A stretch of DNA of 64,000 bases from an uncultured Verrucomicrobiae bacterium. GTDB lineage: Bacteria; Verrucomicrobiota; Verrucomicrobiia; Chthoniobacterales; UBA10450. The first letter of the stretch is position 1; every line of letters begins with the position of its first letter. The notes beneath the pieces were generated by a model. That model had not been told where the DNA came from, searched no databases, and was given only the letters and a program-made list of their open reading frames with translations. Below are positions 1,952 to 61,427 of this stretch, in pieces. Made by a program: the position numbers and the translations under genes. The stretch lies in the NCBI GenBank assembly GCA_963756875.1, contig CAVWPA010000003.1:96001-160000 (forward strand), in the 5' to 3' direction.

Positions 1952-2884
1952 ATGCGGATTTTTAATCGGGCTCACGTTCCCTGGTTCTTCTTCGTCGTCG
2001 TCGCAACGCTTATTTCCGTGTGGCTGTACGTCGGAAATTTCGTACCTGAAAAATTACCGGCGGGACTGAGACTGCCTCCGCAACTGGTTCAAAAAGCTTC
2101 CACTCATCGCAGCGTCGGCGGCACGCCGGTCGGTCTGATGTTCGGCGCGATCTCGCTGGCGATTTTTGTTTTCGCAGCGTTTCTCGGTCTTCGCAAGAAA
2201 GTCGTCCTTTGGCGCGTCGGCACCGTGCAACAATGGTTGCGCGCGCACATCTGGCTGAGCTTGCTCACCATTCCTTTGGTCATTCTGCACAGTGGTTTTC
2301 GCTTCGGCGGCCCAATGACCACGCTGCTCATGGTTCTTTACGCCATCGTCATGGTCAGCGGGATCTACGGGCTCGCCCTCCAACATCAGTTGCCGCGGAT
2401 CATGAAAGAGCGTTTGCCGACGGAAACCGTTTTCGAACAAATTCCGTATATCCGTGCTCAACTTCACGCTGCCGCGGCAAAGATGCGCGATTCAATTAAA
2501 GCGGCGACACTGGCGCAAACCGCAGTTGCGGTTGCCGACCGGGAATCGGCGCCAGCCGTCGACACTGCATCGGAAACGGCTTTCCTCGATTTTCTCGACC
2601 AGCAGGTCCTTCCCTATCTGGCTGCCCGGCGAGGCGACAAATTTCGTCTCAACGACACCCACTATTCGGAAGATTTGTTTCGGTTCGTTAAACTGCGCGT
2701 GGCGGACGAGTATCGCGACCGCGTCGAAGAAATTCAGGCGTGGTGCGATCAGCGACGAGTGCTCGACTTGCAGACCAGGCTGCAACACTGGCTGCATGGC
2801 TGGCTTTTTGTGCACGTGCCGATTTCGTTCCTGCTTATCATGCTGACCGCATGGCATGCTTACGCCACGCTTTTTTATTATTGA
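1952..2884 (+). CDS. Integral membrane protein, probable di-heme cytochrome b / ferric-reductase-like TM domain
   Basis: Start moved to ATG 1952 (MRIFNRAHVPW) because the upstream part of the ORF is REP sequence; two TM helices each carry H-x13-H (HIWLSLLTIPLVILH, HVPISFLLIMLTAWH). Confidence 0.7.
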   Translation: MRIFNRAHVPWFFFVVVATLISVWLYVGNFVPEKLPAGLRLPPQLVQKASTHRSVGGTPVGLMFGAISLAIFVFAAFLGLRKKVVLWRVGTVQQWLRAHIWLSLLTIPLVILHSGFRFGGPMTTLLMVLYAIVMVSGIYGLALQHQLPRIMKERLPTETVFEQIPYIRAQLHAAAAKMRDSIKAATLAQTAVAVADRESAPAVDTASETAFLDFLDQQVLPYLAARRGDKFRLNDTHYSEDLFRFVKLRVADEYRDRVEEIQAWCDQRRVLDLQTRLQHWLHGWLFVHVPISFLLIMLTAWHAYATLFYY

Positions 2885-2916: not shown

Positions 2917-4360
2917 ATGGCCGAGCCGCGTCGAACGCAGAAACAGATTTCCGAACGCTACCGGGGCAACCTCGGTTACTACAACAGACTGCGTTCCTGG
3001 GTGCGGGCGCGCTTCATTGTCAGCTTATTGGCCGTCCTCGCCGGCCTCTTCGCCATCTTTCTCTTCCAACGACACGGACACGAAACATTCTTCAACCCCG
3101 GAAAGATTTCCACGCCGCATGCAAAGTTCGCGGACAACTGCGCGAAGTGTCACGACCAATCGTTGATGACAGGGGGCCCGCTCACTCCTGCGAAATTCAA
3201 GCAAGTTGTAAGCGATCGGTTCCATTCAGGAATCGCCTTTGGTCCGATCGACAGGAAATGCGAAGCCTGTCATACGCACCACGTTTTGCACGAGCCGGAC
3301 GTGGTCCAAAACCGCTCCTGTTCCGCGTGCCATCAGGAACACCGGGGCCTGCAGTCATTGACGCGGGTCGCGAGCTCGAATTGCGCGTCCTGCCACAACA
3401 ACAGCGCGACAATGGAAGCCTCATCGCAAAAAGGGATGCAGTTGAACTGGGCGAATTTCCATCGGCACCCTCATTCAAAACGACAGGTGGTGTTCGATTT
3501 GCCGCGGCCGCCCCGGGGTTACACGCAAACGTTTCCCTCGTTCTGGAATGGTCATCCGGAGTTTCAACTGGACCGCGAGAAGGTGCGCGACCCGGACGTG
3601 CTTCGTTTCAATCATCAACGCCATTTCGCCAGCGACATTCCGCCCGTGAACGGAAAGAAACTCGACTGCGCGTATTGTCACCAGCCTGATCTGGACGGTC
3701 GCTATTATCAGCGGATTACTTTCGCGTCGAACTGCCAGACGTGTCATTCGCTTCAGTTCGATCCAAAAAATCCCGAGCTGACTTTACCGCACGGCAGCGC
3801 CGCAGCGGTCCGCGCGTTTCTGCGCACGCTTCCGACGCAATATGCCGAGCTTGCCGTGAAAAAGGGGATCACACGGCAAAGCGATATTCGCAGCTTCGTC
3901 GCCAAACAAATGACGCAGCTCCGGGACCGGGTGCGTACAGGGCGAAAACCTGGAGCACGAAGTATTCTTTACAACCGATCCTTACAAACTACCGGCGGCG
4001 AACGCGCCGCGGATGCGGGCCTCATTTTACGGCTGCGCTTTTTGTCACGAAGTGAAGCCGGTTGCGAACGCCGCGGCGATCATTACAAAACCGATTTTGG
4101 TCGATCGCTGGATGCCGCAGGCAAAATTCAATCACTCCAAACATCAGACCGATCCGAACACGCAAAAGCCGCTCGATTGCAACGTTTGCCATCACGCCGC
4201 GCAAAGCCGCGAAACGTCCGACGTACTGATGCCTGCGAAAGCAACTTGCGTCATCTGTCACAGCCCGCAGGGAAAAGTGGTGGCTGAATGCACCACCTGC
4301 CACACCTATCACGCCGCCGCCGCTGTAACGACACGCGAGATGTTGCTAGATCAAAGATAG
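2917..4360 (+). CDS. Membrane-anchored multiheme (10 CxxCH) cytochrome c, split by a 1-nt insertion at ~3941
   Basis: N-terminal TM helix; CAKCH, CEACH, CSACH, CASCH, CAYCH, CQTCH, then in the shifted frame (...RTGENLEHEVFFTTDPY...) CAFCH, CNVCH, CVICH, CTTCH; ~480 aa when repaired. Confidence 0.85.
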
Positions 4361-29400: not shown

Positions 29401-29522
29401 TGGAGGGACACGCGCCGTCCGCCGCGCCGTAGCCCTGGCGGAGGTGGGTCGTGTCCCAAATAGACAATGCGACGGTCATCCGCCTTCGCAGCTACGGCGC
29501 GACAAGTAGACCGCCGCTACAG
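29401..29522. repeat. Two REP palindromes, each interrupted by a ~28-31 nt mini-element
   Basis: Removing 29480-29507 regenerates the exact reverse complement of the REP at 19761-19785. Confidence 0.75.
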
Positions 29523-29591
29523 AGATCGGTTCGAAACAGTTTGCCCGATCGCGGGGCTTTCTGGCACTGTACTCTTCGTCATCAACCAAAA

Positions 29592-31640
29592 ATGACTGCA
29601 GAACGGATGACTTCTTACTCTCCGGTGCTGGTGCCGGCATTGCACCGCATCCAGAAGCAATTTGGCTATTTGAAGCCGGAAGCTCTTGAAGCGTTTTCGA
29701 AAGAAACAGGCGTTCCGCAATATCGGCTTCAGGCGGTGGCCAGTTTCTTTCCCCACTTTCTCCTCACGCCTCCGAAGAAGGTCGTGTTGCGGATCTGTCG
29801 CGATTTGTCCTGTCATCTCGCCGGTTCCGGGAAAATGCTGCGGGAATTGAATTCGCTTACAAGCGACCAAGTCGGTGTCGAGGGAGTCTCGTGTCTCGGC
29901 CGATGCGACCGGGCGCCAGCGGCCTGCATCTCGATGCAGGGTTCCGAGCACGAAAATTATTACCTTGGACGCTCGGTTGACGAGCTAAAGGCCCTTGTCG
30001 CGGAAACTCTTAAAGGCACGCCACCGCCGCCGGATCGGGATGCCGATCAGCCGTTTGTTGGCGATGACGCCATTATCGATCCCTACAAGGGGGAGTCGCC
30101 CGATTATCGGGCGGTGCGCGCAGCAGTGGCGGCGCGCGACGCTTCCCTGAACGCGGCCATCGAATTTCTAAAAGCAAAGCCGGGGTGGACTCCGGGAATG
30201 CTGGAAAACTTTCGTGCCGGAGCTATCCGCCAACTGCGTGTCGATTTGGAAATGGACGAGGCCACTCGCGAGGCGGTGCGTTGCTGGCAGACGGAAGGCG
30301 ATTGGGCCAAGGGCCCGAAGTTGGGTGGATGGTCGGACACCCTGCTGGATGAGATCAAAGAGGCCGATCTCCGCGGACTGGGCGGCGCGGGAATTCCGGC
30401 GGTCCAAAAGTGGCGGGATGTGCGCGATGCGGTGCGAAACGCCCGGCAGCGCGACGAAGACGATCGAGCGTTTATCGTCGTGAACGGGGACGAGAGCGAA
30501 CCCGGCACGTTCAAGGATCGCGAACTTCTGCTTCGCAACGCGCACTTGATCGTCGAAGCGGTGATTCTTGCGGGATTGATTACCGAGGCGACCCAGGGTT
30601 TCATTTACATTCGTCACGAATACGCGGAACAGATCGAGGCATGCCGCGCGGAAATTCGGCGCGCGGAGCAGCTGGGGTTTTGCGGCGAAAATGCGATGTT
30701 AATCGGGCGATCTTTCCCCATCTCGGTATTCATCAGCCCCGGGGGTTACATTTGCGGCGAACAAAGCGCGCTCATCGAAGCCATGTCGGACCGCCGCGGA
30801 GAACCGCGGAACCTGCCGCCGAAACTGGAAACGAACGGGTTGGAAAACCTGCCGACACTTGTCAGTAACGTTGAAACATTTGCCTGGGTTCCGTTCATCT
30901 GCATTCACGGCGGAAAAACGTATGCGAAACAAGGAGTGAACAGCTGGAAAGGCAGGCGATATTTCTCGGTTTCAGGCGACGTGAAGCGCCCCGGTGTTTA
31001 CGAGGTGCCGATGGGAATGACATTGCGGGAGTTGATTTACGGCGATCCATACTGCCAGGGCATCGCGGGCGGCAAAAAGCTCAAAGGGTTTGCGCCCTCC
31101 GGGCCTTCCGGAGGATTCCTGCCCGCAAAACTTACGGCGAGCAAGGGTCTTCCTCGCGATCATACTAATAATGAGAGCTGGCGGGCGCTGGCGACCCGGC
31201 GGGGCTTCGATCCCTCCTCCTCCGAACTCGATATTCTGGATCTCGAACTGGAATTAAATCTCTTTCGAGCGTTGAGCCCCACACAGGCACTGGGTGCCGG
31301 CCTGGTGGTTTATGCGGAAGACCGGGATATGGCTGAGCAGGCGGTCAACTCCGTGGAATTTTTTCGCAACGAATCCTGCGGCAAATGCGTTCCCTGCCGG
31401 TTGGGATCGCAGAAACTGGCTTCACTGGGGGCCCATTTGCTCAAGGGACAAATCGATGCAGCGCGCTGGAAGGACGAAATTTTTCCGATGGTCAAAGAAA
31501 TGGGGCGGGCGATCGAGCTCGCCTCGATCTGCGGGCTGGGCCGGTCGGTGCCGGTTCCTCTCACAACAGTCGCCGCCTTCTTCGACGAAGACGTGACAAA
31601 GCATTTGTCGGGAGGAGCAAGCCAGAACGCCGAGCGTTAA
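29592..31640 (+). CDS. Fused NuoE-like (2Fe-2S) / NuoF-like (FMN, NAD(P)H, 4Fe-4S) diaphorase
   Basis: CRDLSC...CLGRC; GLGGAGIP; NGDESEPGTFKDR; GGYICGEQSAL; ESCGKCVPCRLG...SICGLG; start ATG 29592. Confidence 0.88.
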   Translation: MTAERMTSYSPVLVPALHRIQKQFGYLKPEALEAFSKETGVPQYRLQAVASFFPHFLLTPPKKVVLRICRDLSCHLAGSGKMLRELNSLTSDQVGVEGVSCLGRCDRAPAACISMQGSEHENYYLGRSVDELKALVAETLKGTPPPPDRDADQPFVGDDAIIDPYKGESPDYRAVRAAVAARDASLNAAIEFLKAKPGWTPGMLENFRAGAIRQLRVDLEMDEATREAVRCWQTEGDWAKGPKLGGWSDTLLDEIKEADLRGLGGAGIPAVQKWRDVRDAVRNARQRDEDDRAFIVVNGDESEPGTFKDRELLLRNAHLIVEAVILAGLITEATQGFIYIRHEYAEQIEACRAEIRRAEQLGFCGENAMLIGRSFPISVFISPGGYICGEQSALIEAMSDRRGEPRNLPPKLETNGLENLPTLVSNVETFAWVPFICIHGGKTYAKQGVNSWKGRRYFSVSGDVKRPGVYEVPMGMTLRELIYGDPYCQGIAGGKKLKGFAPSGPSGGFLPAKLTASKGLPRDHTNNESWRALATRRGFDPSSSELDILDLELELNLFRALSPTQALGAGLVVYAEDRDMAEQAVNSVEFFRNESCGKCVPCRLGSQKLASLGAHLLKGQIDAARWKDEIFPMVKEMGRAIELASICGLGRSVPVPLTTVAAFFDEDVTKHLSGGASQNAER

Positions 31641-31655
31641 CCTGAATCATAGCCA

Positions 31656-34188
31656 ATGCCTGTACAATCCGATTTCGTTGCCGGTCTGTTCGTCCGTGAC
31701 GACGACGAAGGGTTATTCAGCCGGGACATCAACGGCCAACTCGTTAGGCTCGATGCGCCGACAGAATCCGACTACGAAAAAAACGTAACGCTTCAGATCG
31801 ACGGTGTGCCGGTCACCGTGCCGCTGGCCGAGCCTTTGACCGATGCCAATGGCAATATCGTGGTCGATCTGGAGGGGCGCACCACGCCGCGTTACACCAC
31901 AATCTACGACGCGGCGCGAAAGCTCTACGTGGAGCAGGTAGGCGACGAAAAGAAAATTCCGATCCCGGTTCTCTGCCATCAACCTCACATGCATCCGGTT
32001 GCGGTCTGCCGGCTTTGCGTCGTGCAAATCTACGGGCAAAAGCGGGGCCGCCGCGCCGCGGAGCGTAAACTGTTGCCGGCGTGCCAGCACCAGGTCAGAG
32101 ACGGGATGGAAGTTTTCACCATGAACGCTCCCGGCCCCGATGGCGACCGAGTTCGGCAGACGGTGAAAGTCGTGACAGAACTTTTGGCGGCGGATCATCT
32201 CAAGCCGGCCCATCCTCCGGAGCTGGAGCAGGAACTCGCGCATTTCAATGAGCTCGGCCAGATGTCGGAACGATGCGGCGCCGATCCGTCGCGCTTCAAG
32301 CTGGAGATGCTCTCGAATCCGCCGCCGCCCGCGCGGCCGCGCGCCGGCCGGCGCGAATACGATACTTCTTCTCCCGTCTTCCTGGTCGATCATAGCGCCT
32401 GCATTCTGTGCGACCGATGTGTGCGGGCGTGTGACGATGTCAGGGAAAACCACGTCATTGGACGGACCGGAAAAGGAGCAACCGCCGGAATTGGCTTCGA
32501 TCTGAATGTTCCGATGGGTCAATCGACCTGCGTGCAATGCGGCGAATGCCTGGTCTCCTGTCCCACCAGCGCCATCACATTCAAGTCCGTCGCTCAGATT
32601 GATATCCGCACCAAGGATCGATCCGCCGAAGTGCTGAGGGCAAGAGAGTTGATTTCCGATCCCATTTTCGCGGGAATTTCACCCAAGTTTTTGCTCTGGC
32701 AGCGGGGTTTGGTCATCCGCCGGCGGGTCAAAGCCGGCCAGGTCCTGTGCCGGCCAGGGAGATCCCGGCAACACCGCGTTCATCATTCGGCGAGGCAGGT
32801 TCAAAGTCACCGTCTATCCGAGGGCGCCGGGATCGGGTCAGGCCATTCCGTGGTTTCATCGCCAAAAGCCGGTCTTCGAACGGCAACTGACTCCCGCAGA
32901 CATGATCGTCGGCGAGATGGCCTGTTTGAGCGGATCGCCGCGCGCCGCGAACGTGACAGCGCTGGAAGAAGGCGAAGTCTGGGAGATCCGCCGCAACGTG
33001 CTCGATCGGTTGATGCGACTCCCGAGCCAACGCCGGCGATTCGAAACCGAATACCGGGAACGCTCCCTGGACCTCGCTTTGCAGGACACAGACTTGTTCA
33101 AGGGAATCGAACAGGAGGAGTACGGGCGCATCGTGGACTACCTTCGGCATCGCCTTGCCTTCGTTCGTGTTCATGCAGGCCAAACCCTTTTCGAGCACGG
33201 CGACGTCGCGACCCACTTGTATTTCGTTAGGCTCGGCCATGTCCGCATCAGCGTTTCTCAATACGGCAGGGAAGCCAAGGTGATCTCGTCGGGGCCCGGC
33301 ACAGTCCTGGGCGAGATTGGGCTTCTGGCATTTACTCCCGGGGATAACCAAAAATCCGTAGACGAAATCGATCGGGCCCTGAAAGTGGCGCTCGATCGAG
33401 CAGGCGGCGATTTTAGCCATGCTTTTCCGCCCGGCACGCGAACGGCCACCTGCTCCGCCTTGAACCATCTGGAGTTAGCGCAGCTCAGTCGTACCGATTT
33501 TCTCGAGATGTTATCGAAGTTCGGGGTCCTTCGCCGCAGAATCGTGGAGCAATCTCTCGCTCGTTTGCACAGCTCGAACGTCGGGCATCGGCTCCTTGAT
33601 ACCTACGTCGCGCAAGGCCTCTACGAGGGCCAGAGCGTTCTCGTGCTCGATCTGGATAATTGCACGCGATGCGACGCATGCACCCGGGGCTGCGTCGAGC
33701 AGCATGGGACAGCGACCCACGGCATTCCCATCCCACGCCTGCTCCGCGACGGACGGCGCCTGGATCGTTTCATGATCGCGACCTCCTGCCGGTCCTGCAC
33801 CGATCCACATTGCATGGTCGGATGCCCGGTCGATTCCATTCATCGAGGCAAACATCTTCAGATCGTAATCGAGGACCATTGTATAGGGTGCGGCTTATGC
33901 GCTGAAAACTGCCCTTATGGCAGTATCTTTATGATACCTAACGAGCGAAACCGCGTTGCCATGCCTGACCTCGGGCACGCCGGGCAAACCCACATCGTCG
34001 GCCAGCTTAAGGCCGCCAATTGCGATCTATGCGATGCGAGGGGTGAGCTATCCTCGCCGCGGCCAGCGTGTGTCGCCGCGTGTCCGCACGATGCTGCCTT
34101 CCGTTTGACCGGGCCGGAACTGCTCGAGCGCGTGATGAAAGCGCACGCGCAGGAAACTCAATGGGGAATTCCTCCTGGCGCCGTTTAG
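31656..34188 (+). CDS. 2Fe-2S / 2x4Fe-4S / 2x cNMP-binding / 4x4Fe-4S multidomain protein, split by a 1-nt insertion at ~32754
   Basis: LCH...VCRLC...PAC; CILCDRCVRAC; CVQCGECLVSCP; repaired LCRQGDPGNTAFII; GEMACLSGSPRAANV; second cNMP domain GEIGLL...RTATC; CTRCDACTRGC, CRSCTDPHCMVGCP, CIGCGLCAENCP, CDLC...ACVAACP. Confidence 0.85.
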
Positions 34189-34230: not shown

Positions 34231-34815
34231 TCAGGTCGTCGAAGCGGGTGGTGCAATCGGTTTTGCCGCAGCCGCAGCTTTCTTTGCCGCAGCAGCGGCC
34301 GCCGCTTCGGCAAGTTTCGCATCGACATCCGCCGCCTCAACCGGATGAATCCTGTGATAGTATTCGTTCGATTTCGACAGGTCGCCCTTGAGCATCAGCA
34401 ACGCGTCGAACCGCTCCCGCGTGCTAAGCTCGAATTCCTTGTCCATTTTGATCGCCTCAAACGGACAGACCTCGACACAAATCTGGCAGCTCATGCAGAC
34501 GGAGACGTCAATGTCGAAGACCGCCGGATAAAATTGCGGTTTGCCGATGTAATCGGGCTTTTTGTCCGTGCTCTTGGTGATGTAGATGCACTGCGGCGGA
34601 CATTCTTTCTCGCAAATCTTGCACGCCACGCAGCGCAGTCCCGCGTCGGGATCGTCCCCGTCGTAAATCAGAAACGGAAAATTGCGGTAGTTCTCCGGCA
34701 GCGGGTCGCGCTCCTCCGGATATTGCACCGTGATCAGCCGGTCCTTTTCGAAATAACTTCCGACGAAGTTCCGGGCCGTAACGGCCATCCCTTTAAGTAT
34801 GCCTGTGCCGATCAT
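34231..34815 (-). CDS. nuoI: NADH-quinone oxidoreductase subunit I
   Basis: TVQYPEE, CVACKICEKECP, CMSCQICVEVCP.EAI. Confidence 0.9.
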   Translation of the reverse strand: MIGTGILKGMAVTARNFVGSYFEKDRLITVQYPEERDPLPENYRNFPFLIYDGDDPDAGLRCVACKICEKECPPQCIYITKSTDKKPDYIGKPQFYPAVFDIDVSVCMSCQICVEVCPFEAIKMDKEFELSTRERFDALLMLKGDLSKSNEYYHRIHPVEAADVDAKLAEAAAAAAAKKAAAAAKPIAPPASTT

Positions 34816-34822
34816 GACAGAT

Positions 34823-34915
34823 GAAAGATACTAGATTCTGGATGCTTGATACTGGATAACCGCGTCCTCGCCGGCCTGCGACGTCCAGCATCTAGAATTG
34901 AGGATCCAGCATCGT
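34823..34915. repeat. 7-nt periodic inverted repeat (GATGCTG/CAGCATC type)
   Basis: gatactagattctggatgcttgatactggat ... tccagcatctagaattgaggatccagcatc. Confidence 0.65.
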
Positions 34916-34921
34916 TTTTCA

Positions 34922-36082
34922 TCAGCGGTCCACTTCTCCCATCACAATATCGACACTGCCAAGAATTACCATCACGTCGGGCACGGTGTGGCCAAGGCAC
35001 ATGTCTTCCAGAATCGTCAGGTTGATGAAACTGGGCGGGCGCACACGATATCGGTACGGACCCGGTCCACCGTCGCTGATCAAATAGAAACCGAGCTCGC
35101 CTTTGGGTGCCTCGATGCGGCCGTACGCCTCGCCGACCGGCGGCTTGAAAGCGCGGAGCTTCACCTTCGGATTCACGATCGGGCCGGCCGGAATTTGCTC
35201 CAAAGCCTGCTTTAAAATCCCGACGCTCTCGCGCATTTCCAGGCTGCGCATCATCAACCGGTCGTATGTGTCGCCATGCTCGCCCAGGGGAATACGAAAC
35301 TTAAAGCGCGGGTAAAATCCGTAGCCGTCTACTTTGCGCACGTCGTAATTCACGCCGCTTGCGCGCAGCATGGGGCCGGTGATTCCGGCGCTGATGGCCA
35401 GATCGGCGGGAATCTTTCCCACGTTTTGTGTGCGGGCGATGACGATTTCGTTCCCGATGACCAAATCGTCCAGCTCGTCGATAAAGCGGGGAAAGCGATC
35501 GGCAATTTCCTTCGCGCGAGCGAGCCATTCCGGCGTCGTATCCACGCGGCAGCCGCCGAACCGCATGTAGTCGCACATCATGCGCGAACCGGAGAGCGAT
35601 TCGAATAAATCGAGAATCTTTTCGCGCTCCCGAAACGCGTACATCAACGGTGTGCCCCACGCGCCCATGTCGCTGAGTAGAAATCCAAGCAGCGAAGCGT
35701 GGTTCTGGAGTCGAGTCAGTTCCGCGAGAATAATTCTCAGATATTCCGCGCGTTCGGGCACTTCGATCCCGGCAAGCTTCTCCACGCTCAACGCGTAGGC
35801 CCAGTTGTTCGTCATCGAGCAAAAATAATCGAGGCGATCGGTGTACGGCATCGAACCGAGATAGCTCGTGTTCTCGCCGATCTTCTCGTGATTGCGATGC
35901 AGATACCCGAAAACCGGCTTGAGCTTGCGCACGATCTCGCCATCGAGCGCAACGTTCATGCGAAAGACACCGTGAGTCGACGGGTGCTGCGGCCCCATCG
36001 ATACTTCGAGCAGTTCGCCATCCAGCCGGGAGCTCATCCCCGCTGGCGCTTGCTCAAGTTCTTGAAAACCTGTCGCGCTCAT
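34922..36082 (-). CDS. nuoD: NADH-quinone oxidoreductase subunit D
   Basis: [29 protein letters not shown], terminal GEVDR; no CxxC Ni ligands. Confidence 0.93.
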
Positions 36083-36245
36083 TTTATTCAAGGAATTCAA
36101 ACCAGCCACAGATGAACACAGATTGACACAGATTTGGATTCTTGTTCCTTCTTCATCTGTGTTTGAAACTCGCTCGTCTCCCCGACTCGCTCGCCGCTAC
36201 CCTGCGCGGCTTTACCTTCTATGTCGCTTATGCCATTCGCTCCAT

Positions 36246-36920
36246 TCATCTGTGTGAATCTGTGGCCGTGATATTTTCCGCGCCGTCCAATTGCGGCCGC
36301 GGCGGATAATGCTGTTTCGCTCTCTCCAGCACGTGATCGTGCGGCGTCGGTTCGTATTCGTAATCGTCCGGCTCGCGATAATCTTTCCGCATCGGATAAT
36401 CGACAAACTCGTCCCACATTAAAATGCGGCGCAGGTCAGGATGGCCGTCGAAGCGGATACCGTAGAGATCGAAAATTTCGCGTTCCTGAAATTCGGCGCT
36501 CCGCCAAATTGGCGTGAGCGAAGGCAACCGCGCGCCATCTGCGCGATCCCGCGTCCGCATTCGGATCACGACTGGCCCATGTTTGCGCTCCATCGAATAA
36601 AGGTGATAGACCGCTTCGAGATACCCGGGGATTTTTTCCTCGGTCGTTTGATCGATCTCTTTCTCCACGCCATCGACGGTCTGTTTCACTTTCACCGTTT
36701 TCTTTACCGTGCGATCGAGCCAATCGACACCGGTCGCATTCGAACAGAAATCGAATCGCAATGTTGGATCGTCGCGCAGAAACCGCGCGACTGCCTCCGC
36801 ATGTTCGTGGTCGATCAGGAGCGACGGTTGATTCGCCGGGCCCGGATTCGGCACGGTGTCGATCTTCGCCCCGGGCACAGCGCCTTGCGCGCGTGTCTTA
36901 ATTTGCTCGAGAGTTTCCAT
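36246..36920 (-). CDS. nuoC: NADH-quinone oxidoreductase subunit C
   Basis: EREIFDLYGI.F.GHPDLRRILM...YPMRKDY. Confidence 0.9.
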   Translation of the reverse strand: METLEQIKTRAQGAVPGAKIDTVPNPGPANQPSLLIDHEHAEAVARFLRDDPTLRFDFCSNATGVDWLDRTVKKTVKVKQTVDGVEKEIDQTTEEKIPGYLEAVYHLYSMERKHGPVVIRMRTRDRADGARLPSLTPIWRSAEFQEREIFDLYGIRFDGHPDLRRILMWDEFVDYPMRKDYREPDDYEYEPTPHDHVLERAKQHYPPRPQLDGAENITATDSHR

Positions 36921-36942
36921 TCCTTAAAGGCAAATTCCTTCT

Positions 36943-37047
36943 CAGCCACAGACGGACACAGATTTACACGGATTTTTCTGCCGAGTCCTGCATCCTGAGC
37001 ACCATGTTCTTTTATCTGTGTTTAATCGGTGTTAATCGGTGGCTAAA
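36943..37047. repeat. 9-nt periodic inverted repeat (ACACAGATT type); sister copy at 36103-36270
   Basis: agccacagacggacacagatttacacggat ... atctgtgtttaatcggtgttaatcggtggct. Confidence 0.7.
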
Positions 37048-37680
37048 TTAGCTTTTCGCATCTCGCTCCACTTTCGCTGGGTGAAAAACGTCCGGGTTCG
37101 TTGATGGTTCCAGATCGTGCTCACCAAAACGCGGCACCGGAAATTCGCTCGGCTGGTTGGGATCGAGAAAATCGGCCTTGTCGGGGCCGGTCAGCTTCTG
37201 ATCGTCGATCTTGTGCTGCAGTTCCATGAACGCGTGCAGCAAAGCTTCCGGGCGGGGCGGGCAACCAGGGATATAAACATCGACCGGAATATAACGGTCG
37301 ATGCCTTTCAAAACGTTGTAGCCCTGTTTGAAGGGACCGCCTGAGATCGCGCACGCGCCCATGGCAATGACATATTTCGGATCGGGCATCTGGTTATAAA
37401 GCCGCACAATCTGCGGCGCCATTTTTTTGGTCACCGTGCCGGCCACGATCATCAGATCGGCCTGGCGCGGCGAGGGCCGGAAAACTTCGCCACCGAACCG
37501 CGCGAGATCGTAACGCGACGCAGCAGCAGCAATCATTTCGATGGCACAACAGGCCAGGCCAAACTGGAGCGGCCAGATGGAATTCCTGCGTCCCCAGTTG
37601 TACAAGTCTTGCATCGAAGTCGCCCAGACGCCCTGCCGTTGCAGCTCGGTACGCAGCTTCTCGTCGATTTCTTCTTTCAT
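37048..37680 (-). CDS. nuoB: NADH-quinone oxidoreductase subunit B
   Basis: [39 protein letters not shown]. Confidence 0.95.
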
Positions 37681-37696
37681 GTTTCTCTTGAAGGCT

Positions 37697-38086
37697 TCAA
37701 TCGCTCAACGGTTCACCCTGCCAATGTAGACAACCTTTTCCCCACGCCCAAACCAGACCCTCGATTAACAGGAACAGGAAAACCAGGATCGCAACGAACG
37801 CGCCCACCGATAAACCAGTGAAAGCGACCGCAAACGGGACCAGAAAAATCGCCTCTACGTCGAAGACCAGGAAGATGATGGCGTAAAGATAATACTGCGA
37901 CTGGAACTGGATCTGTGCCTCGCCTAACGACTCGACGCCGCATTCGTAGGTCGCGTTTTTTTCCGGACCCGGCCTGGGCGGCTGGAAAAATCTTCTCCAC
38001 AGCCATGCCAGCGCGAGAGGGATCAGCGGGAACACCAGGGCAACACCAATAAAAACGACGATGAAAAAATACGGATTCGGATTCAC
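37697..38086 (-). CDS. nuoA: NADH-quinone oxidoreductase subunit A
   Basis: [22 protein letters not shown] start at 38086. Confidence 0.9.
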
Positions 38087-38172
38087 GAAATTCGACCTGT
38101 TCCAATTTACAGCAAAGGGCGGCGCGGCACAGGTTTTTTTAGGCGTAGCGATGAATCTCCAGCCGCCGGCCT

Positions 38173-43300: not shown

Positions 43301-43477
43301 ATGCCGGAGCGCACTCAAAAACCAATCGATCCTGCTCCGTGGGGCCCGAAAGAAGGCGAGGGCGGCGGCCCGCGGTCGCCGGATATTTCCAGGCCCGACA
43401 CAAAGGATCTCCTAAAAAAGATGCGCAAGGTCGATCCCAATCAATCCAAGCGCTATCGTCAGCGCACGGGTCAATAA
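43301..43477 (+). CDS. ubact: Ubiquitin-like protein UBact (Pup analogue), 58 aa, not in the ORF track
   Basis: MPERTQKPIDPAPWGPKEGEGGGPRSPDISRPDTKDLLKKMRKVDPNQSKRYRQRTGQ*; C-terminal YRQRTGQ; immediately upstream of proteasome beta. Confidence 0.9.
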   Translation: MPERTQKPIDPAPWGPKEGEGGGPRSPDISRPDTKDLLKKMRKVDPNQSKRYRQRTGQ

Positions 43478-43491
43478 ATGGAGTCTCTTCG

Positions 43492-44292
43492 GTGACGTTT
43501 GACCAGAATTTCTCTGGCGCGACGGAGGATTTTCCCGCGCTTCTGCGCCGGAAAGGCCTGCTGCAACAGGTGCCCCAACTGAATCAGACTGCCGTCGACC
43601 CGGCATTTGTGCAGACGGAATCCACTACGATTCTGGCCTTCAAATTCGCAGGCGGCGTTTTAGTGGCCGGCGACCGGCGCGCCACCTCTGGCAACACCGT
43701 GGTTTACGATCGGGCGGACAAAGTGCTCGAAATCGACCGGCACTCCATCATGGCGATCGCCGGTGTGCCGGCCACCGCATGGGAAATGGCGCGCGTGCTC
43801 GAGCACTCGTTTCAATATTTTCGCCGCACCCAGTTGCAGGAGATGAGCGTGGATGGAAAAGTCCGCGCCCTTTCCAAACTGCTGCGCGATAACTTCGGGC
43901 TCGTAATGAGAGGTGTCGGCGTAGTAGTGCCTATTTTTGCGACGTACGATTCGAATTCCTCGTCCGGAGCACGGCTTTACTTTTACGATGCGATGGGTGC
44001 GCAATTCGAAGTGACAGACTACGCTGCGACCGGCTCTGGGTCGCCGGCCGTGCGCGGTATCCTGTATTACGAAAATCACTGGGGCGGCAAGCCGTTACAG
44101 GAACTGAACGAAGAGGACGCTATCACGCTGGCCTTGCGCGCGCTGGACACCGCTGCGGAAGCAGACACCTCTACCGGCGGCGTCGATCGCGGTGGCAGGA
44201 TTTTTCCGATCATCAAGATCGTGTCGCGTGAAGGAATTACCACGCTCGCGGACGAAAAAATCGCCGCCGTTTTTCAGAAAACTGTCGCATGA
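43492..44292 (+). CDS. prcB: 20S proteasome beta subunit
   Basis: GTG start after GGAG; propeptide then TTILAFK...GDRRAT; ATGSGS; TGG. Confidence 0.9.
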   Translation: MTFDQNFSGATEDFPALLRRKGLLQQVPQLNQTAVDPAFVQTESTTILAFKFAGGVLVAGDRRATSGNTVVYDRADKVLEIDRHSIMAIAGVPATAWEMARVLEHSFQYFRRTQLQEMSVDGKVRALSKLLRDNFGLVMRGVGVVVPIFATYDSNSSSGARLYFYDAMGAQFEVTDYAATGSGSPAVRGILYYENHWGGKPLQELNEEDAITLALRALDTAAEADTSTGGVDRGGRIFPIIKIVSREGITTLADEKIAAVFQKTVA

Positions 44293-55755: not shown

Positions 55756-56154
55756 TCAGGTGATGGCGACAGCCTGAAAGGAGCTGACGACGTCGTCCGG
55801 GCCTTTCGCGGTGAAGAAGCTTTCGTAATAGCCGGGGCCGAGGTCCCAGTGCGGGCCCTTGTAATATTCGTCGCGATAAAAGCGCCAGACGCCACTTACC
55901 ACAATGAGGCAACTGATCCGATCGTCCCAAAAATCGCCGACGTAAAGAAAACTCAGATTCGTACGAGCGTAGGCGCCTTTGAAACCGGTGTGATCGTAAA
56001 CCACCAGCTCTGGCAGGCGAATAATCTCCTTGGACGGCTCCACAGCAACCTTGCCGACGCCGCTGGCGTGATAACTGAGCGGGCCAAGCTTCCATTTCGT
56101 GTCGATGATACAGCCGTTGTCCGGCGACAATTCAGTTTTCGGTATTTGTCTCAT
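55756..56154 (-). CDS. Beta/gamma-crystallin domain protein
   Basis: Y.H..FKG, WDDRISC, VSG.W.FY....YKG, GPG.Y, DDVVSS; ATG 56154. Confidence 0.75.
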   Translation of the reverse strand: MRQIPKTELSPDNGCIIDTKWKLGPLSYHASGVGKVAVEPSKEIIRLPELVVYDHTGFKGAYARTNLSFLYVGDFWDDRISCLIVVSGVWRFYRDEYYKGPHWDLGPGYYESFFTAKGPDDVVSSFQAVAIT

Positions 56155-56331
56155 AAGCGGCGAATGTTTGTTCCCGATTTTGGACGACCCAAAGGCCGAT
56201 GTCGAGCCGATTAGTGGAGGCAAAATGGTGTGGACACAAGATCCCAAATCCCAAGCACCAACTCCGAAAGCTTTCGCGAGCGGGCCTCCAGGGAGGCTCC
56301 AATCGCCAAATCTCAAACTCGTACCAGATTT

Positions 56332-56424
56332 CAACCGCGAATTACGCGGATTCAAACGAATGCCGAGCAGAACGTTCTCTTTTCTCTGCTCTGAAATCCG
56401 CGGCATCCGCGTAATCCGCGGTTA
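56332..56424. repeat. 9-nt periodic inverted repeat (ACGCGGATT type); sister copy at 61430-61514
   Basis: aaccgcgaattacgcggatt ... aatccgcggcatccgcgtaatccgcggtt. Confidence 0.7.
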
Positions 56425-60914: not shown

Positions 60915-61427
60915 ATGCTTCCCCTCTCCTACCGTTCGCCAAAGACCGAAGTGCGCGAGAGCAAAATCCACGGGCGCGGATTGTTCGCCACGGCCGATAT
61001 CGCCAAAGACGAAATCGTGGCGGTAAAAGGCGGCCACATCATCGATCGCGAAACGCTTCAGGGCGACGTGGCGCGGAAGCTCGGCCCGGTTGAAATTCAA
61101 ATCGACGACGATTTGTTCGTCGCGCCGGTCACGGCCGGGGAACGCGAGCTCTCGATGCTCTATTCGAACCATTCGTGCGATGCGAACATCGGCATGCGCG
61201 GCGAGATCACGTTTGTCGCAATGCGCGACATTCGCGAGGGCGAAGAACTCACTCACGATTGGTGCACGACCGATGACGACAATTACTCAATGGAGTGCAA
61301 GTGCGGCTCGGCCAGCTGCCGGAAAATCCTTACCGGCAAAGATTGGCAGCGGTCTGAGTTGCAGAAGCGCTACGCGGGATATTTCTCAGCGTATCTGGCG
61401 CGAAAAATCGCCCAGCTTCGGAATTAA
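60915..61427 (+). CDS. SET-domain protein with post-SET Cys motif
   Basis: G.GLFA, NHSCDAN, GEELTHDW, CKCGSASC. Confidence 0.85.
   Translation: MLPLSYRSPKTEVRESKIHGRGLFATADIAKDEIVAVKGGHIIDRETLQGDVARKLGPVEIQIDDDLFVAPVTAGERELSMLYSNHSCDANIGMRGEITFVAMRDIREGEELTHDWCTTDDDNYSMECKCGSASCRKILTGKDWQRSELQKRYAGYFSAYLARKIAQLRN

Follow-up and report, generated by a model that had tools for sequence, protein, structure and literature searches.

The closest described counterpart of the system considered here is the putative ptdABCDEFG operon, which a preprint (bioRxiv 10.1101/2023.11.21.568154) names from bioinformatics only and whose function it states, in its accessible text, to be completely unknown. That text describes PtdA as a pentaheme protein with a beta-sandwich, PtdB as a porin, PtdC as an FAD/NAD(P)-binding oxidoreductase, PtdD as a periplasmic tetraheme protein, PtdE as a cyclic nucleotide-binding protein with 4Fe-4S clusters, PtdF as a trans-membrane 'ferric reductase-like' protein and PtdG as a decaheme protein; in the literature we searched, only this preprint uses the name ptdABCDEFG. 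Cyclic nucleotides, NuoF and NADH go unmentioned in the accessible text of a 2026 peat preprint (10.64898/2026.05.27.727921) that deals with porin-cytochrome clusters of Verrucomicrobiota. Here we analyse two adjacent genes, A and B, in a 64,000-nt stretch of DNA (the window) on contig C3 of a three-contig genome assembly of an uncultured Verrucomicrobiae bacterium (GenBank GCA_963756875.1). On balance, and with confidence only slightly better than even, we favour the reading that A and B together form the cytoplasmic input end of a Ptd-type trans-envelope electron export system, in which a complex-I-type NADH dehydrogenase module replaces PtdC.

This reading draws on the domain content, conservation, gene linkage and co-occurrence observed here and on a docking of B onto the membrane protein PtdF that is predicted by modelling; the parts of it that we infer are the binding of heme, the outward flow of electrons, their acceptor outside the cell and the gating by nucleotides.

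Comparison with the Ptd system

A same-family relative (G006; G labels denote related genomes and L labels loci) has a canonical seven-part set: a 5-CXXCH protein, a 669-residue protein of no family, an FAD_binding_6/NAD_binding_1/Fer2 reductase, a 4-CXXCH C554-type protein, a 592-residue protein with two cyclic nucleotide monophosphate (cNMP)-binding domains followed by a ferredoxin, a trans-membrane protein, and a 10-CXXCH protein. This set agrees with the Ptd description in the accessible text of 10.1101/2023.11.21.568154. The C-terminal 480 residues of gene B have the architecture of PtdE, namely tandem cNMP domains and a polyferredoxin, and the C-terminal half is about 30% identical to the PtdE of G006 and about 30-37% identical to stand-alone PtdE-type proteins of relatives. 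A trans-membrane protein and a decaheme cytochrome encoded elsewhere in the window, and a tetraheme cytochrome, match PtdF, PtdG and PtdD, respectively, the first being about 28% identical to the PtdF of G006. Where a short PtdE protein occurs without a HoxU-like part, a PtdF homologue is the adjacent, following gene in 7/7 loci, one of them from an unpublished genome (G002). Among 41 related genomes, the same 15 have both a PtdE-like match (E<=1e-25) and a PtdF match, and neither match occurs in the remaining 26. Since these genomes are related to one another, the co-occurrence is a pattern and not a statistic.

The canonical set of G006, the PtdE-PtdF linkage and the co-occurrence are together the reason for reading B as a HoxU-like domain fused to PtdE. 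The assignment of B, the trans-membrane protein and the decaheme to PtdE, PtdF and PtdG was made through the description in the preprint and the clusters of relatives rather than through the preprint's own sequences, and is provisional to that extent. It fits the encoding of PtdF and PtdG together with PtdE and the presence of a PtdD-type tetraheme (25/36 loci, defined below).

The differences from the Ptd system lie at its two ends. Neither a PtdC of the G006 type (the FAD/NAD(P) oxidoreductase) nor the PtdA pentaheme and 669-aa PtdB of that type has a homologue in this genome or in 79 loci that carry a relative of gene B. In place of PtdC there is a NuoE-NuoF fusion together with a HoxU-like [2Fe-2S]+2x[4Fe-4S] domain carried on PtdE, and an LVIVD decaheme and another barrel stand in the place of PtdA and PtdB. 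The canonical Ptd system is marine, whereas the variant described here comes from soil and freshwater Verrucomicrobiota; and the preprint, in its accessible text, credits PtdE with two clusters, where the cysteine count here gives four. Judged by its sequence, the pair therefore appears to be a novel input variant of a named system, the novelty being NuoEF and the HoxU-like domain fused to PtdE. An earlier note on this DNA, made from the sequence alone, had proposed that no characterised enzyme has this architecture; our literature search likewise found none with the architecture of B, although the core is not unnoticed, since PtdE, PtdF and PtdG have been named in the accessible text of 10.1101/2023.11.21.568154.

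Domains and cofactor ligands of genes A and B

Gene A contains, in order, the Pfam domains 2Fe-2S_thioredx (NuoE), Complex1_51K, SLBB and NADH_4Fe-4S (NuoF), all four above their gathering scores, with a linker of about 130 residues between the NuoE and NuoF parts. The domain matches predict a [2Fe-2S] thioredoxin-like domain, an FMN/NADH site and a [4Fe-4S] N3-type cluster, and by these domains gene A is an electron-input flavoprotein. It falls below every cut-off of the NCBIfam NuoF and NuoE equivalogs (nuoF_fam, for example, 281 bits vs 559), and by that measure is a NuoE/NuoF homologue and not a complex I subunit.

Gene B starts 15 bp past the stop of gene A and occupies two open frames, 31656-33230 and then 32902-34188 in another frame; repairing one base gives a single reading frame with the domain order [2Fe-2S], 2x[4Fe-4S], two cNMP domains, 4x[4Fe-4S]. 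Coordinates and cofactor ligands are collected in Table 1. The open reading frames (ORFs), the Pfam matches and the DNA of relatives bear out what the earlier note had described, namely the NuoE-NuoF fusion, the 15-bp gap and the 843-codon gene obtained by a one-base repair, and Pfam and our alignments do the same for the domain order of B and for the missing cysteine of the His-ligated cluster. These alignments comprise 13 full-length proteins and 27 proteins from four phyla.

The N-terminus of B has as its nearest solved proteins the N-termini of HydA and FdsA (E 5e-25 to 1e-18 in a profile search of the PDB). The 13-protein alignment has no conserved Cys between the [2Fe-2S] domain and the first [4Fe-4S] motif, and the His-ligated cluster of NuoG, HoxU and HydA is thus absent from B. 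No curated NCBIfam model is passed by A or B (HoxU 107 vs 333 bits, NuoG 54.5 vs 470), so that B departs from a HoxU/NuoG N-terminal domain both in the missing Cys and in a HoxU score below cut-off. The pair shares with HoxEFU/NuoEFG and with the N-termini of HydA (HydABC) and FdsA (FdsABG) the domain order and the ligands of NuoE, NuoF and the [2Fe-2S]+[4Fe-4S] domain; it differs from them in that E and F are fused, the His-ligated cluster is lacking, the curated models score below cut-off, and there is no catalytic hydrogenase, molybdopterin or quinone module.

At the other end of B, four groups of conserved Cys (numbered in the C-terminal half: C300/303/306/310, C342/345/350/354, C373/376/379/383 and C420/423/436/440) provide for a four-cluster polyferredoxin, which passes none of the curated equivalogs. 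Its PDB matches are HycB3/HycB4 of hydrogen-dependent CO2 reductase (HDCR; E 3.5e-16) and HycB of formate hydrogenlyase (FHL). A DmsB-like 4x[4Fe-4S] ferredoxin had been suggested for this part; the four clusters stand, and as a refinement the PDB profile and NCBIfam place the module closest, by sequence, to cytoplasmic HycB/HydN/AegA-type polyferredoxins and not to DmsB proper. With HycB/HydN-type proteins (HycB3/HycB4 of HDCR, HycB of FHL) and DmsB-type proteins it has in common the four Cys groups of a 4x[4Fe-4S] protein. Unlike them, it is fused behind cNMP domains, and its predicted partner is a heme protein with five trans-membrane (TM) helices rather than a hydrogenase, a formate dehydrogenase or an NrfD/DmsC-type anchor.

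Table 1. Position, strand and characteristics of the genes and domains of the module (positions in the window)
Feature	Position	Strand	Characteristics
NuoE-NuoF fusion (gene A)	29592..31640	+	ORF 29451-31640, first ATG 29592; Pfam PF01257, PF01512, PF10531, PF10589
Gene B, HoxU/HydA-N-terminal-like Fe-S domain fused to PtdE-like protein	31656..34188	+	843 codons read through
Fer2_4 [2Fe-2S] domain of B	31779..32123	+	four invariant Cys: C127, C138, C141, C163 (G008 numbering)
2x[4Fe-4S] ferredoxin domain of B	32385..32579	+	invariant C269/272/275/279 and C312/315/318/322, CxxCxxCxxxC(P) motifs
cNMP-binding domain 1 of B	32646..33015	+	PF00027; contains frameshift; phosphate-binding cassette GEMACLSGSPRAANV at 32911-32955
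cNMP-binding domain 2 of B	33073..33519	+	cassette 33310-33453, split by insertion
4x[4Fe-4S] polyferredoxin module of B	33604..34119	+	16 Cys in four groups; predicted docking face for membrane protein
PtdF-like 5-TM membrane protein	1952..2884	+	310 residues; two H-x13-H pairs, H99/H113 and H288/H302
PtdG-like membrane-anchored periplasmic decaheme cytochrome c	2917..4360	+	6+4 CXXCH across frameshift

Conservation and gene neighbourhood

Relatives of gene B are numerous. Of 8000 candidates scored against an intact orthologue, at least 2116 proteins have E<=1e-10; the 120 matches listed are 63-92% identical, mostly of 815-857 residues, and bear only generic database names ('cyclic nucleotide-binding domain-containing protein' or 'Fe-S-cluster-containing hydrogenase component 2 / CRP-like'). 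In G008, G029 and G031 the orthologue is intact and has 827-858 aa. In a scan of species representatives, with one genome per species, at least 570 species-level genomes encode a relative (570 of the 596 matched stretches listed), mostly in soil Chthoniobacterales and also in Terriglobia (L073, L080), a Riflebacteria metagenome-assembled genome (MAG; L079) and Phycisphaerales (L087); relatives in Planctomycetaceae/Pirellulales are 41-48% identical.

We examined the surroundings of B in the 79 loci, which come mainly from Chthoniobacterales and other Verrucomicrobiota. In the loci with at least 2.3 kb upstream of B, NuoEF lies directly upstream on the same strand without exception (69/69). Other neighbours were counted within 10 kb, by tblastn of reference proteins, in the 36 fully flanked loci, which extend at least 9 kb on both sides. 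A homologue of the PtdF-like membrane protein of the window is present in 25/36 of these, one of the multiheme cytochrome in 24/36, a Cytochrome_C554-type tetraheme in 25/36, an LVIVD-repeat multiheme protein of about 1370 residues in 17/36, a CHASE2 adenylate/guanylate cyclase in 10/36, and a Lactamase_B-receiver-GAF protein in 2/36. In G008 the gene order is cyclase, membrane protein, decaheme, NuoEF, B. The survey of homologues that the earlier note had called for finds both of the partners that it named within 10 kb of B in most fully flanked loci.

In a few loci (L017:10887-12713 in G031, L044, L040), a Lactamase_B_2-receiver-GAF protein is encoded directly downstream of B; it is a candidate cyclic-nucleotide phosphodiesterase or sensor tied to the module.

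Next to the pair, the window has no gene for a hydrogenase, a molybdopterin enzyme or a glutamate synthase, and no conventional catalytic partner is found among the 30 gene clusters common to most of the 79 loci, of which only a few were checked with Pfam. Both the absence of such a partner and the picture of a stand-alone NAD(P)H-input and Fe-S module, as put forward previously, agree with the conserved NuoEF-B pair.

Two outputs had been suggested for the module, the di-heme protein with the decaheme cytochrome, and a nuoABCD-I set without E, F and G. The latter set is real: a nuoA-nuoB-nuoC-nuoD and NuoI-like cluster occupies window positions 34231-38105 on the minus strand, with no nuoE/F/G or membrane subunits beside it. 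A separate nuo region with NuoE/F-like genes lies on contig C1 (about 482-489.5 kb) and a second NuoH at C3:649654-650592, so the genome may carry a split, EFG-less second complex I. If NuoEF and B were the missing N module of this set, the adjacency of the two clusters (B ends at 34188 and the NuoI-like gene at 34231) and the NuoG/HoxU-like N-terminus of B would be explained. This account is very improbable in our judgement: a nuoA, B, C, D or I homologue is found within 10 kb of B in 0/36 fully flanked loci and in 0/79 loci overall, the genes are convergent and not co-transcribed, B is without an N5-type cluster and the NuoG C-terminal domain, the nuo region on C1 has NuoE/F-like genes of its own, and the ferredoxin end of B docks on PtdF in the model described below. 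The first of the two outputs, the 5-TM membrane protein and the decaheme, is supported by synteny, co-occurrence and the docking model, and both genes are as the earlier note had described them.

The membrane protein and its predicted docking

The PtdF-like protein of the window is 58% identical to its counterpart just upstream of NuoEF in G008, and the window decaheme is 50% identical to its G008 neighbour. Six His are invariant in 25 PtdF-like sequences (H8, H99, H113, H282, H288 and H302), with the pairs on the third and last helices. An AlphaFold (AF2) model (predicted local distance difference test, pLDDT, 89; predicted template modelling score, pTM, 0.77) has five long, membrane-length helices and a helical insert of 115 residues, at about 155-270, on the cytoplasmic side. 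From the His pattern, the protein would hold two stacked bis-His hemes and is a putative trans-membrane di-heme b conduit.

The protein is otherwise isolated. Pfam gives nothing at E<=1 for the window and planctomycete copies and only DUF6041 (E 0.23) for the G008 copy; no NCBIfam model matches; a PDB profile search returns 0 matches at E<=10; no Foldseek match in the PDB reaches E<=0.001 (STEAP1 has E 1.1 and SpNOX E 2.2); and VIA-align (wide) gives only helical-bundle matches, the best of which, to helical sensor domains, has Z 10.1, no more than the noise level among helical proteins.

NADPH oxidases, ferric reductases and MsrQ are alike in proposed function, passing electrons from cytoplasmic NAD(P)H through flavin and two stacked bis-His hemes to an outside acceptor. 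The H-x13-H pairs of PtdF sit on two helices, with a spacing which we take to be that of NOX. PtdF differs from these proteins in having no Pfam match at E<=1, PF01794 included, and only the distant STEAP1 and SpNOX hits above, in its five helices with the 115-residue cytoplasmic insert, and in a donor that would be an Fe-S protein instead of a fused FAD domain. The likeness to ferric-reductase domains is accordingly proposed as a functional analogy.

We modelled the complex of the ferredoxin module (residues 255-474 of the C-terminal half, 27-row alignment) with the membrane protein (25-row alignment), using alignments made in this analysis. Three runs give an interaction prediction score from aligned errors (ipSAE) of 0.58, 0.61 and 0.61, and the best of three controls 0.00; the ipSAE mark is attained by 116/157 solved complexes vs 2/215 mismatched pairs. 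At least 98% of contacts are shared between the runs, with a partner pLDDT of at least 79. In the interface, ferredoxin Cys groups I and IV (residues 297-305 and 433-444) face PtdF residues 1-7, 82-96, 144-162 and 278-282, which form one face of PtdF near H99, H282 and H288; H113 and H302 are at the opposite end of the helices. The B ferredoxin module is therefore predicted by these models to dock on the PtdF-like protein. As neither sequence nor fold links PtdF to any solved structure, the models are unlikely to owe this score to a known complex that they had learnt.

Proposed route and direction of electron flow

The remaining parts of the route are dispersed in this genome. On contig C3, the PtdF- and PtdG-like genes (97952-100354) are 25 kb from NuoEF and B (125565-130152); a Cytochrome_C554-type tetraheme copy with 3 CXXCH and 1 CX4CH is at 485131-486177, an LVIVD decaheme (10 CXXCH) is at 1061594-1065646, adjoining a 689-residue protein and an HbpS-like protein, and a CHASE2 cyclase is at 1200943-1202715. 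The 689-residue protein carries a signal peptide and has the C-terminus ...TVTLTY; its model, of low overall confidence (mean pLDDT 52, strands 70-83), is built of some 18 long strands, and its matches are porins and AlgE, a barrel of 18 strands (E 6e-14, TM-score 0.63 on target). It is thus predicted, from a model of that confidence, to be an outer-membrane barrel of about 18 strands. In G023, the genes for the barrel, the LVIVD-type cytochrome, PtdG, PtdF and PtdE are all within about 13 kb, and this clustering ties the barrel/LVIVD pair to the Ptd core. A multiheme cytochrome gene adjoining an outer-membrane barrel gene is also the arrangement of porin-cytochrome conduits (Mtr/Pcc), to which we found no sequence relation. 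Mtr-type systems receive their input from quinol; the route proposed here differs in being trans-membrane and directly NADH-linked.

Two further genes lie beside the LVIVD decaheme. One encodes a 326-residue CysJ C-terminal-like FAD_binding_1/NAD_binding_1 protein (G000:C3:1060361-1061335, L098; G000 is this genome), which is 65% identical to a gene beside PtdE in G023 and is present in 7/79 B-type loci. The other belongs to a group of proteins of 576-737 residues with a C-terminal HbpS-like (heme-degrading/GlcG) domain, found beside the barrel and LVIVD genes in 16/79 loci; the copy in this genome is at C3:1068165-1069610 (L098), and in G021 one is directly downstream of B.

In the mechanism that we propose, NADH would be oxidised at the FMN of the NuoE-NuoF fusion, and electrons would pass through the [4Fe-4S] N3-type cluster to the HoxU-like N-terminus of B, entering its [2Fe-2S] and then its 2x[4Fe-4S] clusters. 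From there they would cross, past the cNMP tandem, to the C-terminal 4x[4Fe-4S] polyferredoxin, which would dock on the cytoplasmic face of the PtdF-like protein. The inner heme b and then the outer heme b of PtdF would carry them across the inner membrane to the anchored PtdG-like decaheme, and from the decaheme they would reach the tetraheme, the barrel with the LVIVD decaheme and, finally, an outside acceptor; barrel, LVIVD protein and tetraheme are the parts encoded elsewhere on the contig.

The same parts could in principle run in reverse, with outside or periplasmic donors reducing NAD+ by way of the cytochromes, PtdF, B and NuoEF. Nothing in the data fixes the direction, and NuoEF-type modules are reversible in hydrogenases and formate dehydrogenases (HoxEFU, FdsABG). 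Inward flow through a two-heme conduit, however, would have to overcome the membrane potential, the potentials of multiheme cytochromes are as a rule much higher than that of NAD+/NADH, and no energy-coupling subunit is linked in the loci. On these grounds of general bioenergetics outward flow is preferred, and electron uptake seems to us quite improbable.

Cyclic nucleotide-binding domains

Gene B matches the cNMP family PF00027 with 88 bits against a cut-off of 27.5. The cassette of domain 1, GEMACLSGSPRAANV, aligns with the cyclic AMP (cAMP)-binding cassettes of the regulatory subunits of protein kinase A (PKA), GELALLYNAPRAATV and GELALMYNTPRAATI, and its G, E and R are invariant in the 27 sequences from four phyla. 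Domain 2 likewise has G-E and R-T-A (G183, E184 and R226 are invariant in the 27 sequences) around an insertion of 20-40 residues between GEIGLL and RTATC, which is shorter in Planctomycetota; an intact first cassette and a second one with an insertion between GE and RTA are what the earlier note had reported. By sequence, the domains are of the PKA/CRP type, with a beta-roll family match and the conserved Gly-Glu and Arg of the cassette. The regulatory subunits of PKA and protein kinase G (PKG) likewise have tandem cNMP domains and the aligned cassette G-E-...-P-R-A-A; they differ from B in that its domains lie between two Fe-S modules and its second cassette has a long insertion.

The cNMP tandem lies between the Fe-S modules in the polypeptide, with its cassette residues conserved, and a cyclase is encoded within 10 kb in 10/36 loci. 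We tentatively suggest, at a likelihood well short of even, that a second messenger, cAMP or cyclic GMP (cGMP), directly gates an NADH-to-outside route that is independent of quinone, conserves no energy and runs through an unclassified di-heme protein, in the manner of a redox valve. Binding of cAMP or cGMP to the tandem would set whether the two Fe-S modules are within electron-tunnelling distance, and the switch would toggle a route that bypasses quinone and conserves no energy; a built-in switch would be sensible for just that reason. With the same reserve, abundant soil Verrucomicrobiota, Planctomycetota and Acidobacteriota may use such a valve to dump reducing power on extracellular acceptors when oxygen fails.

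Alternatively, export may proceed as described through a constitutive wire, the cNMP-like domains being only a structural spacer or a protein-docking module with no response to nucleotides. Many CRP/FNR-fold domains do not respond to nucleotides, the cassette of domain 2 is interrupted by 20-40 residues, and a cyclase is near in only 10/36 loci and the candidate phosphodiesterase-like protein in 2/36. Set against this are the G, E and R of both cassettes, invariant in 27 sequences from four phyla, the residue-for-residue alignment of domain 1 with the PKA cassettes, and the two uninterrupted cNMP cassettes of the short PtdE paralogues. We regard a wire of this kind as rather unlikely, though it deserves more weight than electron uptake.

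Frameshifts in gene B and the decaheme gene

The break in gene B is a single surplus base at 32752-32753, where the window reads TGCCGGCCAGGG and six relatives have TG[CT]CG[ACT]CAGGG; intact relatives translate VLCRQGDPGNTAFI across it. The window holds a second frameshift, in the decaheme gene near 3925-3945 (frames 2917-4287 and about 3863-4360). A CCWGG motif adjoins both breaks, which may be chance and from which nothing is drawn. Programmed frameshifting in gene B was considered and rejected, as break positions vary between genomes.

If both frameshifts are real, the module would be decaying here, and the system would be non-functional in this genome though working in relatives. The concentration of the breaks speaks for decay: the module genes, some 7 kb in all, contain two, where the rate of a codon-bias scan would lead one to expect about 0.1-0.3. 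So do the genes of G021, the closest relative with a B-type gene, in which B is broken near codon 63 (L018:8700-9200) and the PtdF match occupies two separate open frames (G021:C1:1392322-1393279) about 870 kb from B, the module being dispersed there too.

Several findings oppose this. Frame changes in B or NuoEF occur in 9/19 loci of one set of few-contig MAGs (6 loci per gene, 3 with both) and in 0/60 other loci, at positions that differ within the MAG set and are not conserved, and the present genome is a 3-contig assembly. Both halves of gene B retain every cofactor ligand and full-length similarity. Moreover, the enrichment test is post hoc and the scan crude: it missed known breaks in L035, L039 and L087, has a background of 1.28 per 100 kb in short-read loci, and yields a rough rate only. 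In this genome it recovers both known breaks of the window and flags candidate frame switches over 2.69 Mb, 126 loose and 50 strong (strong, 1.86/100 kb), which suggests residual indel errors in the assembly. Candidate switches also cluster in single long genes, e.g. at C1:291-296 kb and C3:1320 kb. Contigs from three soil-metagenome runs of one study were searched over 31656-34188, and none spans 32751-32840. The frameshift in gene B is probably a long-read assembly artefact, and decay of the module in this organism remains the minority view, doubtful but by no means negligible. The earlier note would have given up its proposal for a real frameshift without intact homologues; intact homologues abound, with relatives in at least 570 species-level genomes.

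Weighing the proposal

A number of points weigh against NADH-driven export through B and PtdF. As to the genome itself, two of the four core genes carry frameshifts and the parts of the system are scattered over 1.1 Mb. As to linkage, PtdF and the decaheme are both missing within 10 kb of B in 11/36 fully flanked loci, and the 15 genomes in which PtdE and PtdF co-occur are kin rather than independent, one of them (G002) being unpublished. PtdF matches no heme-protein family (nothing in Pfam at E<=1, weak Foldseek hits to STEAP1 and SpNOX). The CysJ-like FAD/NAD protein could be the real donor, or a second, NADPH-linked one. For the gating in particular, the long insertion in the cassette means that domain 2 may not bind nucleotide, and the proposal presupposes a gap in B, between its two Fe-S modules, for which gating would be needed. 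The accessible text of the preprint that named the core of the system (10.1101/2023.11.21.568154) calls its function completely unknown.

Away from the module, the window contains a few other genes of note. A 317-residue Proteasome-subunit-domain protein is encoded at 43339-44292 (+) amid peptidoglycan genes (LysM, amidase, PG_binding_1), a beta/gamma-crystallin-domain protein at 55756-56406 (-) and a SET-domain protein at 60915-61427 (+); the latter two domains are both uncommon in bacteria.

Implications

If the proposal is correct, complex-I-type NADH oxidation would be tied directly to a trans-envelope multiheme pathway with no quinone between them, and a cyclic-nucleotide sensor would sit inside the wire itself; we know of no characterised precedent for respiratory control by a sensor so placed. 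On this reading the input module of the Ptd system is interchangeable, with at least two forms, the FNR-type PtdC and the NuoEF/HoxU-type described here, and with the CysJ-like protein as a possible third, which argues for PtdE, PtdF and PtdG as the conserved core. The variant is common: the genomes that have it number at least 570 at species level and belong chiefly to Chthoniobacterales, which are dominant in soil and offer few handles on their physiology. It would give the Ptd system a defined donor and a testable second-messenger hypothesis.

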